Shown here in pieces: positions 30,180 through 36,770 of a stretch of 51,740 nt of DNA; positions within the stretch are counted from its first letter, which is position 1; every line of letters starts with the position of its first letter. This DNA comes from Candidatus Bathyarchaeia archaeon. GTDB lineage: Archaea; Thermoproteota; Bathyarchaeia; 40CM-2-53-6. The notes beneath the pieces were generated by a model. The model made no database searches, was not told the DNA's origin, and worked only from the letters and a program-made list of their open reading frames with translations. The DNA lies in the NCBI GenBank assembly GCA_049517415.1, contig JBEKSC010000020.1:1-51740 (forward strand), written 5' to 3'. Made by a program: the position numbers and the translations under genes.

Positions 30180-30226
30180 AACTACAGGCACCGAACCCTT
30201 CGACGTGCATTTTTGTACGCTGTAGC

Positions 30227-30234
30227 TTTAAATA
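30227..30234 (+). promoter_or_regulatory. TATA box (TTTAAATA) of the trp operon
   Basis: Near-consensus archaeal TATA box, implying a TSS near 30255-30259. Confidence 0.7.
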
Positions 30235-30253
30235 AAGCATTGATGTCAATTGC

Positions 30254-31690
30254 GTGGCACCGCGATATTCGGGGAAGAAAAAATGGGGTATAGCCTTTGG
30301 GCGGCCTGCCCAGCAACTAAAGACGCAAACAGAACATAGGCTAAAGCTCCAGAAATTCCGGTACTCAACAAACCCCGTACAAACATTTCTTGCACTTAGT
30401 CATCAGAGCGAATACTGTTACCTCCTCGAATCTGCTGAGGGCCCAAGGAAACTCGCGCAATATTCTTTCATTGGCTTCTCCCCTGAAAAAATCGTTGAGG
30501 TGAAGGATGGCCGCTACACCGAAACGATCCCCGGAGATGCATCCACCACCATTCAGATAGACGACCCTTATCTCCCGCTGCGGAAGACGCTGGCCGAAAA
30601 CTTCACAACGTATCATGGGTTCCGGTTCGTAGGAGGCTTGGTAGGCTACTTCTCCTACGATGCAATTCGCTATCTGGAATCGATACCTACTCAAGCTCGC
30701 GATGATCTGAAACTTCCAGATTTCGAATTCGGAGTCTACGATGATGGGATCGTATTCGACCACCTGAACGGCCAGGCTTACTATTACTGGTACAACAATG
30801 ACAGGTTGAAAGAGATTGAACGACTTCTCCACCAAAGGATAACGCCAACAAATCTAGCCTCTGACCGACTGAGAGTAAACCTAAGGCAACAAGAATTCGA
30901 ATCAAAGGTGGACGAAGCGAAGAAGTACATTAGAGCTGGAGACATATTCCAAGTCGTACTTTCAAAACGCCTCGAGTTCGCTTTCAAAGGCGACCTACTC
31001 AATTTCTACAAGGCATTACGCGAGATCAACCCCTCCCCATACATGTACTTCCTCAAAATGAAAGACCGAGCATTAGTCGGCTCAAGCCCTGAGATGCTTG
31101 GAAGAGTCGACAAAGGCCGCGCGGAAACATTTCCAATAGCAGGAACGCGCCCCGTGGGAGCAAACAGCGAAGAAGACAGTCGATTGGCGGACGAGCTATT
31201 GAGTGACCCAAAGGAACGAGCTGAGCACATTATGCTGATAGACCTTGCCAGGAACGACCTTGGAAAAGTTTGCCAGTTCGGGACGGTTGAAGTTCCAGAG
31301 TTCATGGTGGTCCAAAGGTACAGCCACGTTCAACACATAGTTTCGCGGGTTTCAGGTCAACTTCAACCGGGTTGCGACTCGCTCGACACATTCAAAGGAA
31401 TCTTCCCGGCCGGAACAGTGTCTGGAGCGCCGAAAAAAAGAGCGATGGAAATCATAGAGGAACTGGAACCGACTAGGAGAGGACCGTATGCTGGGGCAGC
31501 AGGTTACTTCTCGTACAACGGCAACGCTGATTTTGCAATAACGATACGGACGCTAGTCGCCAATGGAAATATGGCCTACATACAAGCCGGGGCAGGGATA
31601 GTCGCGGATTCACAACCTACACGAGAATGGTTTGAAACAGAACAAAAGGCCGAAGCCCTCGTTCACGCCTTGAAAGCCGGTGGGATATGA
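30254..31690 (+). CDS. trpE: anthranilate synthase component I; start uncertain (GTG 30254, or entry by +1 frameshift from the leader)
   Basis: [62 protein letters not shown] and AGAGIVADS motifs. Confidence 0.93.
30283..30339 (+). CDS. trp leader peptide (uORF), 18 aa: [18 protein letters not shown], with a CTT-TGG-G candidate +1 shift site
   Basis: ATG 30283 preceded by GGGG at 30271-30274; TAG at 30337-30339; single Trp codon at 30298-30300 directly after CTT. trpE is in its +1 frame. Confidence 0.75.
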   Translation: MGYSLWAACPATKDANRT

Positions 31691-31691
31691 A

Positions 31692-32273
31692 ATGAAAGTC
31701 TTGATAGTAGATAATTTCGATTCGTTCGTATACAACCTCGCGCAGTACGTAGGCCAACTAGGAGCCGAACCTATCGTCTGCAGAAATAATCAGATCACTC
31801 TGCGCCAAGTGGAAGAACTAGGACCCGACCGAATCATACTCTCGCCTGGCCCAGGTAGACCTGAGAACCGGAAATATTTCGGAATCTGCTTGGATATAAT
31901 AAAGAAGCTAAGCCCCGGCGTCCCCACGCTCGGCGTATGTCTAGGGCATCAAGGCATAGCGTACGCATTTGGCGGGTCAATAGTGCCCGCGAAACGCTTG
32001 ATGCATGGAAAAACTAGTTTGATTGAACATGAAAGCGACGGCTTGTTCAAAGCTGTTGAGAACCCGCTCCGGGCGACCAGGTACCATTCCCTAGTTTGCG
32101 AAAGAAAGAGCTTTCCAAAGTGCTTGGAAGAGACCGCAACATCGATCGACGATCGCGAGATCATGGGATTTCGGCATCGAAAGTATCCGATCTATGGTGT
32201 CCAGTTCCACCCCGAATCCATTCTGACTTCTGAGGGCCTAAAGATTATCAAAAATTTCCTAGAGAGATCCTGA
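31692..32273 (+). CDS. trpG: anthranilate synthase component II (glutamine amidotransferase)
   Basis: DNFDSFVYNL, SPGPG, GVCLGHQ, RYHSL and QFHPES motifs. Start placed at ATG 31692. Confidence 0.95.
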   Translation: MKVLIVDNFDSFVYNLAQYVGQLGAEPIVCRNNQITLRQVEELGPDRIILSPGPGRPENRKYFGICLDIIKKLSPGVPTLGVCLGHQGIAYAFGGSIVPAKRLMHGKTSLIEHESDGLFKAVENPLRATRYHSLVCERKSFPKCLEETATSIDDREIMGFRHRKYPIYGVQFHPESILTSEGLKIIKNFLERS

Positions 32274-32275
32274 AA

Positions 32276-33337
32276 ATGATCAGGGAAGCTATTCAACTGT
32301 TAGTGGACCGAAATGACTTGCCATTCGAACTCGCGCAGCAATCCATGCGAGAGATCATGGCAGGCGAAGCAACACCATCTCAAACTGGAGCCTTTCTAAC
32401 ATCGCTTAGGATGAAAGGAGAAAATATCGACGAGATAACCGCCCTAGCAATGGTAATGCGAGAAAATGCAGTTCGAATCAACCCCCATGTCAACGGAAGG
32501 ACTGTTGATACCTGCGGGACTGGTGGAGACCGACTAAAAACATTCAACGTGAGTACTGGTGCGGCACTTGTCGCGTCCGGCGCAGGAGTGCCCATCGCAA
32601 AGCATGGCAACCGTTCGGTCACAAGCAAATGCGGGAGCGCGGACGTTCTGGAAGCGGTTGGAGTCAACCTAAACGTACCACCATTAGTGGTCCAGAAATC
32701 GATAGAACAAGTAGGAATCGGTTTCATGTTCGCGCCTGCATTCCATCCAGCAATGAAAAACGCAATCGTCCCACGTAGGGAAATAGGAATACGAACAGTC
32801 TTCAACATTCTCGGACCCCTCACAAACCCAGCCAACGCAAACGCGCAAGTGCTAGGAGTCTATGATTCAAGCCTCGTCGAACCGATGGCGAAAGTGCTGC
32901 ACAAACTCGGTACCGAAGAAGCCATAGTAGCGCACGGGGTGGATGGCTTAGATGAAATATCAACTATAGGCAAAACGAAACTCGCGTGGTTGAAAGACGG
33001 ACAGACCACAACAAAGGAGATTACCCCGCAAGATCTGAACCTCAAACAGGCGCGGCCAAGCGAAATCTCCAGTTTCGACGTTGACGAGAGCGCGAAGCTC
33101 CTGGTAAACATACTCAACGGGACAGAGGACAAACAATCTACACGACTTGAAATGGTTCTTGCAAACGCTGCAGCTGCTATAGTTATTGGCGAAAAGGCCG
33201 ACGACTTGGCCTCGGGCGTAGAAGTCGGACGTGAAGCAATAGCAAGTGGAAGGGCCTACGGCAAGCTCAAGGCGCTAATTGAATGCACAAACGGCGATGT
33301 CTCTAGACTTGAAAGGATAGAATCACAAAATGCCTAG
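32276..33337 (+). CDS. trpD: anthranilate phosphoribosyltransferase
   Basis: DTCGTGGD, FNVST, KHGNRS, GSADVLE, RTVFNILGPLTNP and DGLDE motifs. Confidence 0.95.
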   Translation: MIREAIQLLVDRNDLPFELAQQSMREIMAGEATPSQTGAFLTSLRMKGENIDEITALAMVMRENAVRINPHVNGRTVDTCGTGGDRLKTFNVSTGAALVASGAGVPIAKHGNRSVTSKCGSADVLEAVGVNLNVPPLVVQKSIEQVGIGFMFAPAFHPAMKNAIVPRREIGIRTVFNILGPLTNPANANAQVLGVYDSSLVEPMAKVLHKLGTEEAIVAHGVDGLDEISTIGKTKLAWLKDGQTTTKEITPQDLNLKQARPSEISSFDVDESAKLLVNILNGTEDKQSTRLEMVLANAAAAIVIGEKADDLASGVEVGREAIASGRAYGKLKALIECTNGDVSRLERIESQNA

Positions 33338-34106
33338 TCTATTAACAAAGTTGATTGAAGATGCCGAAAGAAGAGTCGGCACAGGCTACTACGATATCAG
33401 AGAGACCGTCGAGCACGAAACCGTCAGCCTTAGACAAGTACTCAAATCGTCTCACAGGAACGCCATAATAGCTGAGATTAAACCGATCTCCCCCGCCCTC
33501 GGTCCACTCCGTCCAAGCATGGATCCAGTTGATGCGGCAATCAAGCTTGCCAAGGGTGGCGCAGTTGCTTTATCCGTCCTAACGGAACCGGACAACTTCG
33601 GCGGAAAAATAGAGACCCTTCGACGAATTAGACGAAGCGTAGACCTACCGCTGCTCATGAAAGACATAATCATTCACAGGTCACAGATTCATGCGGGCAA
33701 GAAATCGGGAGCCGACTGCATCCTCCTCATCGAATCAGTTTTCTCAGCACATCCCACACCCTCCATGCAAGGCCTGATTCATGAAGCACACCAAGAACAA
33801 CTGGAAGTAGTTCTCGAAGTCCACAGCGAAGACGAACTGCAAAAAGCTCTTGAAAGTGAAGCGGACATTATCGGTGTAAATAACCGAAATCTTGCGACAT
33901 TAGAAACCGACATAAACACAACCGCACGACTAGTAGGCAGGATCAATCAAAGGGCTGGAAAGGCCATCATAAGCGAGAGCGGGTTCGAGAACGCGAATGA
34001 CATTCGCAAATTGAAAACAGCAACAGTGGATGGATACTTGATAGGTTCTTCAATTATGCTCTCAGAAAATTTGGAAACTAAAGTTCGTGAGTTCGTGCTC
34101 GCATAA
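33330..34106 (+). CDS. trpC: indole-3-glycerol phosphate synthase
   Basis: IIAEIK.SP, SVLTEP..FGG, KD, GADCILLI, EVH, IGVNNRNL and ISESG motifs. Confidence 0.93.
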   Translation: MPSLLTKLIEDAERRVGTGYYDIRETVEHETVSLRQVLKSSHRNAIIAEIKPISPALGPLRPSMDPVDAAIKLAKGGAVALSVLTEPDNFGGKIETLRRIRRSVDLPLLMKDIIIHRSQIHAGKKSGADCILLIESVFSAHPTPSMQGLIHEAHQEQLEVVLEVHSEDELQKALESEADIIGVNNRNLATLETDINTTARLVGRINQRAGKAIISESGFENANDIRKLKTATVDGYLIGSSIMLSENLETKVREFVLA

Positions 34107-34117
34107 GGAATTTTGCT

Positions 34118-34762
34118 ATGAGAGTCAAGATTTGTGGTTTAATGCGACCGGAGGATGTACGGACCGCCTTGGACAGCGGCGCAGATGCTCTTGGTTTCGT
34201 AGTATCGAGCCCTTCCTCGCCAAGAAACCTGTCGCTGAACGCGGCACACGGATTAATGAAAAACGTTCCAGTCTTCGCAACGAAAGTGGCGGTTACCTCC
34301 GCGAATGACACGAAAACTGTCGCCAAGATCTGTTCCAAGCTAAAGCCCGATGCACTTCAACTTCATCGATACCAACAACAACTTGTAGGATTGATCAGGC
34401 GCAAACACCCTCAAACTAAACTTATCCTAGCCAAGGCTATCCGGGATCGTGCCTCTCTGGAACTAGCAAGTTGGATTTCAAGAGAATCGGACGCGGTTTT
34501 GGCCGATTCACCAAGCCTCAGCGGAATGGGCGGTACAGGCCGAACCCATGACTGGCACCTCACAGCCACCGTCCGAAATAGAATATACCCACATCCACTA
34601 ATCCTAGCGGGAGGACTAACACCAATCAACGTTCAACAGGCTATCAGGAAAGTCAGGCCCTTCGCCGTCGATGTCTCAAGCGGCGTCGAAAAGACGATTG
34701 GAGTGAAAGACCGCAATAAGATTCGTAACTTTATCAAAAAAGCAAAGGAGAACGTAGATTGA
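34118..34762 (+). CDS. trpF: phosphoribosylanthranilate isomerase
   Basis: [31 protein letters not shown] and VDVSSGVE motifs. Confidence 0.95.
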
Positions 34763-35958
34763 CCAATCAACATTCCAAACCTGTGGATGGCAAATTCGGG
34801 AAATTTGGTGGCCGTTATGTCCCGGAAACTTTGATGAGCGCTCTTATCGAGCTGGAAGAAGAATACACTCGGCTAAAGAATGATCCCGAATTCAAATCCC
34901 AACTTGAGTATCTCCTAAGAGAATTCGCAGGCCGACCAACGCCCCTGTATTACGCTGCGAACTTGACACGAAAGGCGGGAGGCGCGAAGATCTACATCAA
35001 ACGCGAGGACTTGGCACATGGGGGAGCACACAAGATCAATAATACGATTGGGCAGGCGCTCCTCGCGAAAGGAATGGGCAAGGAGCGAGTCATAGCCGAG
35101 ACTGGGGCGGGCCAACATGGGGTCGCAAGCGCAATCGCTTGTGCCGCGCTAGGTCTGAAATGCGAAGTTTACATGGGCTCAGAGGATGTGGAAAGGCAGA
35201 AGCTGAACGTCTTCCGCATGAACCTTCTAGGGACAAAGGTTCACACTGTCCATTCAGGGTCGAAGACACTCAAAGATGCGATAAATGAGGCCTTTAGAGA
35301 CTGGGTAACAAACGTTGAGAACACCTACTATTTACTGGGCTCCGTCGTAGGCCCACACCCATACCCGACTTTGGTTAGGGATTTTCAAAGCGTCATTGGC
35401 CTCGAAATTAAGGAGCAGATCCTGCGGAAAGAAGGACGCCTTCCAGATGCGATAGTTGCATGCGTAGGAGGAGGGAGCAACTCGATTGGTGCGTTCTACC
35501 CATTCATCGCTGACACGCAAGTAGGCTTGTATGGTGTTGAAGCAGGCGGCCTAGGCTTAGAGTCTGGAAAACATGCAGCGACATTGTGCGCTGGACAAGA
35601 AGGCGTCTTTCATGGGATGCTCACTTACATACTCCAAGATGAAGATGGCCAAATAGAATCAACCCACAGCATCTCCGCTGGCCTCGACTATCCTGGAGTT
35701 GGCCCAGAACACGCGTACCTTAAGGCTACTGGCCGGGCTCATTACACTTCGGCAACTGATCAACAGGCCTTAGAAGCCTTCACGGAGTTAAGTAGACTTG
35801 AGGGCATTATACCGGCCCTCGAATCTGCACACGCAGTACATTATGCGGTCATTCTAGCATCCAAGATGCGCCGAGACCAGCTCGTGGTGATTAACCTGTC
35901 AGGACGCGGGGACAAGGACGTCAATGTCGTCGCGAAGAGTTTAGGCGTAAAGATTTGA
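34759..35958 (+). CDS. trpB: tryptophan synthase beta chain (TrpB1 type)
   Basis: [23 protein letters not shown] (PLP Lys), [29 protein letters not shown] and NLSGRGDKD motifs. Confidence 0.96.
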
Positions 35959-36770
35959 TGAGAATCTCAGAATCATTCGCTCAACTGAAGAAGAAAGGCG
36001 AAGGTGCACTCATTGCATACCTGACAGTAGGTTACCCGACCCTGAAACAGACTCCACGCCTAATAGGGGCCATGATCGAAGGCGGAGCAGACATCATCGA
36101 ACTCGGCATCCCCTTTTCGGATCCGATTGCGGATGGGCCTACGATTCAAGCCGCTGTCATGCGTTCCTTGGCGAGCGGAACTAAGCCACTTGATGCTTTG
36201 GAGATAGCTCGAGCAGTTCGTGAGAAGCATGATACGCCTCTGGTTCTGATGACTTACTTCAATCCTATCTACAGGGTTGGATTACAGAAATTCCTAAGCC
36301 TCGCCAAGAATTCCGGGATCTCCGGAATTATCGTCCCCGACCTTCCGGTAGAAGAATCGAAGGATTACAAGAAGGAATGCGTTGCAACCGACATTGACAC
36401 CATATTCTTGGCTTCGCCTTCAACTCATCCGGAGAGGCTTAAACAAATTCTGGCGCAAACTTCTGGTTACCTCTATCTGATTTCATTATACGGTGTGACA
36501 GGTGTCCGGTCAGAAGTCTCTCAGTCGGCGCTGGCCCTAATCAGGGAATATCGGGCCATTGTTGGAGGGTCCGTACCCCTCGCAGTAGGATTCGGAATTT
36601 CTAAAGCTGACCACGTAAGAGAAATGATCCACGCGGGAGCAGATGGAGCAATAGTGGGAAGCGCATTCGTGAAAATAATTGGCGAAAATTCGCGGAACAT
36701 GCCTCGTTCGCTCAAGAAATTGGAAAACTTCGTCAGGGCTATGAAGAAAGCAACAATAAAGGCCAAATGA
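35955..36770 (+). CDS. trpA: tryptophan synthase alpha chain
   Basis: [37 protein letters not shown] and ADGAIVGSA motifs. Confidence 0.96.

Follow-up and report, generated by a model that had tools for sequence, protein, structure and literature searches.

The trpE locus and its leader

The window, i.e., the whole stretch of 51,740 nucleotides from a Candidatus Bathyarchaeia archaeon that was analyzed, contains a tryptophan operon with trpE at its head. The features considered here all lie on the forward strand:

30205..30218, forward: operator-like inverted repeat GTGCA-TTTT-TGTAC, just 5' of the TATA box (degenerate form of GTACA-N4-TGTAC)
30227..30234, forward: TATA box TTTAAATA, read from the sequence
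30254..30256, forward: GTG, the sole canonical in-frame trpE start upstream, from the listing of open reading frames
30271..30274, forward: Shine-Dalgarno-like GGGG for the leader ATG (duplex with the 16S tail, −5.9 kcal/mol)
30283..30339, forward: 0-frame leader ORF of 18 codons, ATG 30283 to TAG 30337-30339
30285..30291, forward: internal Shine-Dalgarno-like GGGGTAT, pairing with the 16S 3' tail ...GGAUCACCUCCU (−6.1 kcal/mol)
30295..30298, forward: predicted slip site C-TTT, where P-site CTT 30295-30297 would re-pair on TTT 30296-30298
30298..30300, forward: TGG, 0-frame A-site Trp codon and putative sensor, present in all 192 cassettes surveyed below
30299..31690, forward: trpE, in the +1 frame after the predicted shift (Pfam Anth_synt_I_N and Chorismate_bind)
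31680..36770, forward: trpG, trpD, trpC, trpF, trpB and trpA, as ORFs that overlap or closely abut

The leader reads ATG GGG TAT AGC CTT TGG GCG ... TAG, with five codons (MGYSL) before the TGG, and it sits in the −1 frame of trpE (30283-30300 cover the start codon through the TGG). The original prediction had described the TATA box, the GGGG, the leader opened by ATG 30283, its TAG and the position of trpE in the +1 frame, and all of these hold on the sequence. It had also stated that GTG 30254 is the only in-frame start upstream and that the next one, GTG 30500, falls past the conserved LLES motif, which was borne out.

The same layout recurs in relatives. TATA-like words were concentrated at about −60 to −46 from the leader ATG in 167 loci and form an A/T-rich block in the alignment. 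Positions −14 to −9 are rich in purines (91 aligned loci), and the duplex of the upstream Shine-Dalgarno site with the 16S tail had a mean of −7.28 kcal/mol (169 instances). The leaders range from 7 to 51 codons; 91 of 95 contain a single Trp codon and the other four contain two.

The Pfam domains found downstream of trpE were GATase, Glycos_transf_3, IGPS, PRAI, PALP and Trp_syntA. Because the gene ends overlap, translation of the remaining operon is likely to be coupled. The AlphaFold2 model of the predicted TrpE product has a mean pLDDT of 87. A structural role for the GIAFG peptide was considered and set aside, as residues 1-13 were below 50 in pLDDT; a monomer model with a 24-sequence alignment is weak evidence on this point.

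Conservation of the cassette

We surveyed 216 trpE loci, which are mutually related and partly redundant, and found the cassette in 192 of them (180 distinct cassette strings), under a definition that itself required TGG. The cassette consists of a start codon, usually four further codons and NTT_TGG; from the TTT onwards, the +1 frame is open into trpE. The original prediction had proposed looking for this arrangement, an upstream ATG...NTT-TGG with trpE in its +1 frame, among archaeal trpE genes annotated as start-less or frameshifted. A strict form of the motif, [ATG]TG-R-GG-N-[AG]T-NNNN-TTTGG, has a single match in the 2.65-Mb genome; about one match per genome is estimated to arise by chance. 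It is the same place and the same frame relation in 192 of the 216 related loci that put the cassette far beyond chance.

The cassette is kept in the class of the window and in loci of eight family codes labelled only ‘same phylum’. Among the 192 cassettes, the start codon is ATG in 176, GTG in 8 and TTG in 8. It begins 15 nt 5' of the TGG in 184 cassettes and 9, 18 or 21 nt in the other 8, and without exception it is in frame with the TGG, that is, −1 relative to trpE.

The frame of trpE is closed by a stop upstream, with no canonical start, in 122 of the 192 cassette loci. A TGA overlaps the ATG in 53 of these 122 loci and a stop abuts the TTT in 8. TGA also serves as the stop codon of trpE in six of the eight genome loci of the TGA type, so TGA is a true stop there. 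Some in-frame canonical trpE start is present in 69 of the 192 loci. Such upstream starts were not in excess, with frequencies of 21/60 and 16/32 vs 26/60, 27/60, 7/32 and 10/32 in the control frames. Among 25 relatives of the same order, GTG 30254 is common to the window and its closest relative only (L002, TrpE 94% identical); L003 (85% identical) lacks a canonical start in this frame, and the residues encoded from GTG 30254 to the cassette are not conserved.

Some lineages have TrpE with an ordinary start. In the lineage of L129, L201 and L227, TrpE has its own in-frame ATG and the slip site has decayed to TTC. No cassette was found in L131, the f22 loci or the f50 loci, all of which belong to lineages with a canonical in-frame start. 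Comparison of these loci indicates that the cassette is lost or decaying in lineages where trpE has a canonical in-frame start.

The called TrpE starts were scattered among 121 database proteins, some of them past LLES and some at upstream codons that occur by chance. This scatter suggests that trpE start sites are mis-annotated in these lineages.

Position of the proposed shift

The P-site codons of the 180 distinct cassettes were CTT (77), GTT (71), ATT (18) and TTT (14). Phe is encoded by TTT in all cassettes, compared with 704 TTT and 1053 TTC elsewhere in the same genes (40% TTT). In eight loci (L261, L265, L268, L273, L276, L284, L291 and L292), the trpE-frame codon next to the TTT on its 5' side is TAG or TAA, whereas reading from the ATG meets no stop up to and including the TGG. 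Because of this stop, the shift cannot happen earlier in these loci.

Natural variants bear on the same point. L272 is a paralog with CTT_TAG_C, in which the A site has a stop instead of TGG, as in prfB. Its paralog L271 is naturally in frame and reads MSDLP-STLR, to be compared with MGDPL/STLR; its sequence corresponds to the cassette less one base. G197 (L251) is naturally in frame as well; its cassette lacks one T, and it reads MRNHL-DNQTTKQT where its relative G122 would give MRNCI/GNQITKQT. At the level of the predicted peptides, the two natural in-frame genes match the product of the shift.

The slip from CTT onto TTT before the TGG had been proposed in the original prediction. A programmed +1 shift at this place, with TGG in the A site, is supported by the stops before TTT, the two in-frame forms and the invariant TTT.

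From the ATG to the TTT, the sequences vary with a period of three in the frame of trpE, with the pattern G-[IVM]-[AVTI]-F-G. This resembles selection at the protein level 5' of the proposed slip site, a point against that site; we would ascribe it to base pairing with the 16S tail.

Internal Shine-Dalgarno-like element

We found that the internal element (positions 1–12) matches the true Shine-Dalgarno site in the strength of its pairing with the 16S 3' tail. Its duplex had a mean of −7.65 kcal/mol over 169 instances, vs −1.76 and −2.67 kcal/mol in the controls, and was at or below −5.5 kcal/mol in 98% of instances, vs 8% and 12% of the controls. The spacing from the internal element to NUU was 2 nt in 116 of the 169 instances. 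From the upstream site to the ATG it was mostly 3 nt, and this spacing was the longer one in 129 of the 169. By these predicted pairings, the internal element is 1–2 nt nearer to the slip codon than initiation spacing would place it, as in prfB.

Other elements around the shift site were searched for. The fold of 30256-30380 had a z-score of −0.33, with no terminator or antiterminator structure. Rfam gave no relevant family for this region, its sole match being a sub-threshold Histone3 on the other strand, and as a 3' stimulatory structure we found only a weak genus-level hairpin of 5 bp with one compensatory pair. An avoidance of T after UGG was considered as a further signal and dropped: T occurred in 1 of 91 in the first set, and the effect shrank in the full set, with T in 11 of 180.

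Two scans of the genome for similar cassettes returned noise only. As their thresholds missed trpE itself, the scans are no evidence that cassettes are absent elsewhere in the genome. One candidate for a second cassette, C13:50700, proved to be an ordinary gene that begins at TTG, 3' of a stop codon. The ARAGORN tRNA set of this genome comprised only 28 tRNAs, none of them for Gly.

Operator-like element beside the promoter

The inverted repeat next to the TATA box is degenerate in the window, and relatives show the undegenerate form GTACA-TTTT-TGTAC. Within −110 to −16, GTAC was found in 146 of 167 loci, vs 19 of 167 in the coding control, and TGTACA in 94 of 167, vs 1 of 167. These sites were concentrated at −80 to −61 from the leader ATG. 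TGTACA is the TRP-box consensus of TrpY. Transcription is probably also governed by this GTAC/TGTACA operator adjoining the TATA box. No regulator gene was present among the 12 neighbouring ORFs scanned.

The original prediction had seen no repressor-type control in the window and had taken the cassette to replace a repressor. The first statement does not stand, given the conserved GTAC/TGTACA pair upstream of the TATA box, which is degenerate in the window. The second is doubtful, since the cassette occurs together with a conserved operator-like element.

Proposed mechanism and alternative explanations

We consider it probable that TrpE is made by way of a programmed +1 ribosomal frameshift which senses a shortage of Trp-tRNA at the UGG. 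We infer the Trp dependence from a single property of the cassette, namely that its A-site codon is UGG. The mRNA would start about 20–25 nt 5' of ATG 30283, judging by the distance from the TATA box, and would carry the Shine-Dalgarno site. The ribosome would initiate at ATG 30283, read MGYSL, and reach the state with CTT in the P site and UGG in the A site. There the internal element (GGGGUAU here, GGGUGAUC in other lineages) would pair with the 16S tail and favour forward movement. If Trp-tRNA arrives fast, the ribosome would stay in frame and terminate after 18 codons; if it arrives slowly, the peptidyl-tRNA would slip from CUU to UUU, and reading would continue with GGG CGG ... into TrpE. 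We also lean towards the wider reading that this single-codon Trp sensor gates trpE together with the coupled trp operon and acts alongside the TGTACA operator. In the genome of the window, no stop separates GTG 30254 from trpE, and this codon is close to where transcription is predicted to begin; conventional leaderless translation from it is thus possible and could add some TrpE.

The frameshift may instead be constitutive and fix a low level of TrpE, with UGG merely slow and Trp control exerted by the promoter operator alone. The conserved GTAC/TGTACA element beside the cassette is in keeping with this explanation, and so is the variant L272, which uses a stop (CTT_TAG) and not UGG. However, UGG is at the A site in all 192 cassettes, in a tryptophan-making operon, and no other slow or rare sense codon is found there, though a TGG was part of the definition used for the tally. 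The last T of the TTT, which is also the first base of the UGG, is invariant against a background of 40%. Moreover, a weak start codon would suffice as a fixed attenuator without a conserved 18-nt cassette. A constitutive shift thus seems unlikely.

A second explanation is that TrpE is made here from a leaderless mRNA starting at GTG 30254, and that the ATG leader is irrelevant or a vestigial uORF. This GTG is in frame, open into trpE and, by our estimate, about 20 nt past the TATA box. However, the start is common to L002 only, L003 has no canonical start there, and the protein stretch that leads from the GTG to the cassette is not conserved. In the window, the leader retains its Shine-Dalgarno site, its ATG and the entire cassette, under the constraints seen in the 122 loci for which no other start is available. 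We regard GTG 30254 as the source of TrpE as quite improbable.

Thirdly, the ribosome could shift straight after the start codon (AUG-R-GGN), giving MGIAFG... and making the UGG of the other frame incidental. The periodicity in the trpE frame, with its conservative codons (GGN; ATH/GTN/ATG; GCN/GTN/ACN/ATN), would fit such a shift, as would the co-variation of R4 and N7. We reject it as very improbable because eight loci have a trpE-frame stop directly before the TTT and because the natural in-frame forms carry 0-frame leader residues (MRNHL, MSDLP), not GI.F. Several other observations are also at odds with it. TTT is never TTC in the cassettes, and the loci with longer leaders (L032, L273, L283, L296 and L299) keep the ATG/TGG frame and lose RGG. 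We saw no MG[IV].FG N-terminus among 121 database proteins, and the GIAFG segment is predicted to be disordered (pLDDT <50).

Least credible is that no frameshift occurs, the leader being an ordinary regulatory uORF and TrpE starting at a non-canonical or downstream codon: a trpE-frame ATG or GTG lies inside the cassette at L006, L015 (MAFG), L032 and L164 (GTG), but most loci have no such codon, the next in-frame start of the window falls past the conserved LLES, and the loci with a stop before TTT open the trpE frame with TTT GGN, neither of which is a start codon.

Comparison with known systems

Bacterial prfB, which encodes release factor 2, has an autoregulatory +1 shift at CUU_UGA_C with an upstream Shine-Dalgarno-like element; the E. 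coli shift site reads GGG TAT CTT TGA C. The proposed trpE frameshift resembles it in having a short 0-frame ORF, a CUU-type P-site codon that would slip onto UUU and a slowly decoded A-site codon. In both, too, an internal Shine-Dalgarno-like sequence sits closer to the P-site codon than initiation spacing, and the main ORF, lying in the +1 frame, has no start codon to itself, which for trpE holds in 122 of the 192 loci (the window has the non-conserved GTG). The logic is similar as well, since scarcity of a decoding factor would raise the shift, as we propose here for Trp-tRNA. However, the putative sensor in trpE is the sense codon UGG, read by Trp-tRNA, whereas prfB uses the stop codon UGA, which its own product recognizes. 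Further differences are that trpE is a biosynthetic enzyme gene heading an operon, that the hosts are archaea, and that the trpE cassette occupies codons 1–6, overlaps the start and accepts CUU, GUU, AUU or UUU in the P site. Measured from the CCUCC core, the internal element is farther from the slip codon than in E. coli prfB.

In ribosome-mediated transcription attenuation of the trpL type, Trp codons in a leader peptide before trpE couple the supply of Trp-tRNA to operon expression. Leaders and attenuation of bacterial trp operons are the subject of 10.1101/606483 and PMC7968998. At the archaeal locus, trpE is likewise preceded by a short leader peptide that contains a Trp codon. In contrast to trpL, there is one Trp codon (91 of 95 leaders) and not tandem codons, no terminator or antiterminator was found, and the output would be a change of frame and not transcription read-through.

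Yeast Ty1 and ABP140 (CUU_AGG_C) and antizyme are known +1 frameshifts, and antizyme senses a metabolite. As is proposed for trpE, the shift in these genes is driven by slow decoding at the A site; unlike in trpE, the codon there is a rare one for Arg, or a stop acting together with polyamines. To our knowledge, none of the three uses a codon for the amino acid of the regulated pathway itself.

In Methanothermobacter, TrpY represses the trp genes through the TRP-box (TGTACA). The TGTACA/GTAC boxes at the trpE promoter are similar, with a degenerate copy in the window. Control of the TrpY type would be a transcriptional layer separate from the trpE frameshift.

The regulation of amino-acid biosynthesis is poorly understood in archaea, and we know of no bacterial-type attenuation in them. 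If our interpretation is true, the trpE cassette would be a functional archaeal counterpart of bacterial attenuation and the first natural programmed frameshift whose sensor is a sense codon for the amino acid that the pathway makes. It would also add to the few cellular examples of programmed +1 frameshifting known from archaea. The archaeal +1 candidates given in the accessible part of a 2016 review are only viral, Mg-chelatase and Sulfolobus ones (PMC5009743). In the openly accessible literature searched, we found no published description of a trpE frameshift. The mechanism, if true, would link the supply of Trp-tRNA to trp operon expression within about 18 nt and would be directly testable. 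The group that has the cassette is very large, and related records are labelled Nitrososphaerota or Nitrososphaera, a group that includes ammonia oxidisers.

The trpE Leader and Its Distribution

In the original prediction, the TATA box, the GGGG element, the ATG leader, its frame relation to trpE and the two GTG codons at 30254 and 30500 were all read from the window, and the sequence bears them out.

30227-30234, + strand: TATA box, TTTAAATA
30254-31690, + strand: long ORF of trpE, anthranilate synthase component I (Pfam Anth_synt_I_N and Chorismate_bind)
30271-30274, + strand: Shine-Dalgarno-like GGGG
From ATG 30283, + strand: leader ORF, ATG GGG TAT AGC CTT TGG GCG ... TAG, translated to 18 residues

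The trpE frame is +1 relative to leader ATG 30283, and trpE is the first gene in the order trpE-G-D-C-F-B-A, in which the genes overlap or abut. GTG 30254 is the sole upstream canonical start in the trpE frame of the window; the next, GTG 30500, lies past LLES.

In a first comparison, TrpE was present in 28 of 41 related genomes, and the island ATG-R-GG-N-AT-NNNN-TTT-GG was found in all 26 loci with an available 5' end (L012 has a TTG start). Scanning metagenomes with an alignment of the N-terminal part of TrpE yielded 80 loci. TrpE was found in 120 of 301 genomes at the class level and in 163 of 301 at the phylum level, from which 88 and 20 upstream regions were read, respectively. For the final tally, a cassette was defined by a start codon whose frame stays open as far as NTT_TGG, by alignment of TTT-GG to the trpE frame, and by the lack of any stop in the trpE frame between TTT and the conserved core.

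The survey that had been proposed, for an upstream ATG...NTT-TGG with trpE in its +1 frame, yielded the cassette in 192 of 216 trpE loci (180 distinct strings); these loci are interrelated and partly redundant, so the counts show breadth and not independent trials. The start codon was ATG in 176 cassettes, GTG in 8 and TTG in 8; without exception it shares the frame of TGG, which is the -1 frame of trpE. Its first base precedes TGG by 15 nt in 184 loci; in the remaining 8 the distance is 9, 18 or 21 nt. The trpE frame was closed by a stop upstream and had no canonical start in 122 of the 192 cassettes, including 53 with a TGA overlapping the ATG and 8 with a stop directly before TTT. The strict motif occurred once in the whole genome of the window, and two scans for cassette-like sites elsewhere in that genome gave nothing credible at thresholds that missed trpE itself too.

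Table. The 24 of 216 loci without the cassette.
Decayed cassettes, in a lineage with a downstream in-frame TrpE ATG (MKFKKISF...): L129, L201, L227
GTG starts, leaderless-looking: L131, L286, L288, L297
Ordinary Shine-Dalgarno site and ATG, or operon-internal trpE: L237, L238, L240, L243, L249, L266, L269, L285, L287, L293, L295, L298
In-frame fusions: L251, L271
TAG variant, without cassette by tally: L272
ACG replacing ATG, without cassette by tally: L166
Truncated contig, without cassette by tally: L183

The decayed site reads TTC GGC in L129, and the ATG is absent in L201 and L227. This decay is consistent with relaxed constraint where the shift would not be needed.

Position of the Probable Frame Change

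Judging from the compared sequences, trpE in these lineages is very probably read through a programmed +1 shift at NUU_UGG. The slip site originally predicted, CTT to TTT with TGG in the A site, was weighed against a frame change just after the start codon (AUG-R-GGN), which would give a product beginning MGIAFG. In favour of the early site, variation from ATG to TTT follows a three-base period in the trpE frame and appears conservative in amino acids (G-[IVM]-[AVTI]-F-G). However, in eight loci (L261, L265, L268, L273, L276, L284, L291, L292) the trpE-frame codon just before TTT is TAG or TAA, and the ATG frame is open through TGG.

The in-frame forms also argue against the early site. L271, with a canonical start, reads ATG AGC GAC CTG CCG AGT ACA CTA AGG (MSDLP-STLR), and its paralog L272 gives MGDPL, one extra T, and then STLR. 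In genome G197 (L251) trpE is in frame and encodes MRNHL-DNQTTKQT; the nearest cassette-bearing relative has MRNCI-GNQITKQT, and the cassette is found in 13 other members of the genus. L271 and L251 thus match the predicted shift product exactly: they retain leader residues of the 0 frame, and residues of the +1 frame come next. L272 itself reads ATG GGT GAT CCA CTT TAG C, with a stop codon where others have UGG, as prfB likewise has. L272 and L271 (G263:C40 and G263:C34) are two trpE copies of one genome.

The Phe codon at the site was TTT in every cassette, whereas elsewhere in the same genes TTT was used 704 times and TTC 1053 times, and two conserved Phe positions had 19 versus 73 and 37 versus 54. 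TTC at the shift site was seen only in the decayed L129 lineage. In five variants with longer leaders (L032, L273, L283, L296, L299) the ATG still shares the frame of TGG, but the RGG that an early shift requires is missing. Moreover, an MG[IV].FG N-terminus occurred in 0 of 121 database proteins inspected, and the 13-residue N-terminal segment was disordered in the AlphaFold2 model (pLDDT <50; model mean 87). Together these points outweigh the early site, and NUU_UGG prevailed.

Internal Shine-Dalgarno-Like Element

Cassette positions 1-12 are complementary to the 16S tail, with a one-base bulge as GGGGU.AU(C) or GAGG.GAUC, perfectly as GGGUGAUC in family f20, and as GUGAU in L032. The mean duplex energy was -7.65 kcal/mol for 169 distinct instances, against -1.76 kcal/mol for 3378 12-mers of the same genes and -2.67 kcal/mol for the opening 12 nt of long ORFs in this genome (n = 1452); 98% of cassettes reached -5.5 kcal/mol or lower, against 8% and 12% of the controls. 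We infer that this pairing explains at the RNA level why GG and AU are conserved, a pattern that had resembled protein-level selection.

Spacing was counted from the mRNA base that faces G1530. For the internal element, the distance to NUU was 2 nt in 116 of the 169 instances, while 39 had 1 nt and 13 had 0 nt. For the upstream site, 54 instances had a distance to the ATG of 3 nt, 35 of 4 nt and 27 of 2 nt. Of the two spacings, the upstream one was larger in 129 of 169. Because the internal spacing is shorter, a ribosome held there would favour a P-site codon one to two bases on, namely the +1 codon UUU. This geometry parallels that of prfB.

Proposed Response to Tryptophan

The A-site codon at the shift was UGG in 192 of 192 cassettes, TGG being required by the cassette definition, and it was the single Trp codon in 91 of 95 leaders. 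The Gly after the site is dispensable for the enzyme, because in-frame forms have Asp or Ser there; thus, TTT-GG is apparently retained for UUU and UGG. For a Trp codon placed where the frame of a trp operon is decided, the natural reading is that slow arrival of Trp-tRNA at UGG would cause more +1 shift and hence more TrpE. A response of the frameshift to tryptophan seems reasonably probable, whereas a constitutive shift at the same codon is unlikely. The combined proposal, a programmed +1 shift at NUU_UGG that reads trpE and responds to tryptophan, is likely.

The cassette would work like the prfB frameshift, but it lacks what defines prfB, namely a stop codon that acts as the sensor and is read by the product of the gene itself. 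It would serve the same purpose as trpL attenuation, but has neither its tandem codons nor its alternative hairpins. The leader region matched no Rfam family and showed no significant structure on folding (z-score -0.33). A possible hairpin, UUGGG/CCCAA (5 bp, one compensatory pair within the genus), is found at 30297-30313 of the window and in relatives L001-L016, and its 5' arm coincides with the shift site. After the cassette, window positions 30302-30345 and the aligned +20 to +60 of 91 loci are G-poor and A/C-rich; this stretch codes for a hydrophilic Q/T/K-rich linker, variable and of no fixed length, that precedes the TrpE core. The openly accessible literature searched, including passages of a 2016 recoding review (PMC5009743), contained no description of a frameshift in trpE.

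Initiation at the Leader ATG

Alignment of 91 loci on the ATG revealed a purine-rich block at -14 to -9, A-rich positions at -3 to -1 and A/T-rich TATA-like blocks at about -56 to -42; TATA-like words concentrated at -60 to -46. The upstream Shine-Dalgarno block pairs with the 16S 3' tail of the genome (...GGAUCACCUCCU) with a mean duplex energy of -7.28 kcal/mol. The purine block and TATA position would place the transcription start so as to leave a 5' UTR of roughly 20-25 nt containing the Shine-Dalgarno site. Judged by these sequence signals, the leader ATG is a real start. In L294 (family f35, phylum-level sample), the cassette ATG GGT GGA CGT TTT TGG starts about 22 nt past the TATA box, and its leader may lie on a leaderless mRNA.

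In the first comparison, ATGAGG placed a TGA in the trpE frame of L004, L008, L011, L014, L017, L020, L024 and L025. TGA is a genuine stop in TGA-type organisms, because it also ends trpE in 6 of the 8 genome loci of that type. In-frame upstream starts were found in 21 of 60 TGG-type loci (control frames, 26 and 27 of 60) and in 16 of 32 TGA-type loci (control frames, 7 and 10 of 32), and against the control-frame rates they therefore look like chance. A leaderless GTG start fails as an explanation for the relatives at large, since GTG 30254 is common only to the window and its closest relative L002, and the corresponding frame of L003 (TrpE 85% identical) contains no canonical start. Being in frame in this window, GTG 30254 may add some conventional translation. 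Called starts of database TrpE proteins P0002-P0121 were scattered among chance upstream codons, MAFG, MLESAEG and others, which suggests widespread 5'-end mis-annotation.

Operator-Like Element

Repressor-type control had been described as not visible in the window; this part of the prediction did not stand, as a conserved operator-like element is seen upstream of trpE. Within -110 to -16, 146 of 167 loci have GTAC and 94 of 167 have TGTACA, against 19 and 1 of 167, respectively, in the coding control. The sites concentrate at -80 to -61 relative to the leader ATG, directly upstream of the TATA box. Close relatives have GTACA-TTTT-TGTAC, and the window has the following counterpart.

30205-30218, + strand: operator-like pair GTGCA-TTTT-TGTAC

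No regulator gene was found among 12 neighbouring ORFs. The pair is similar to the TRP box known from the TrpY system of Methanothermobacter, and a transcription factor that responds to tryptophan probably uses it as its operator. It would form a second layer of control beside the frameshift.
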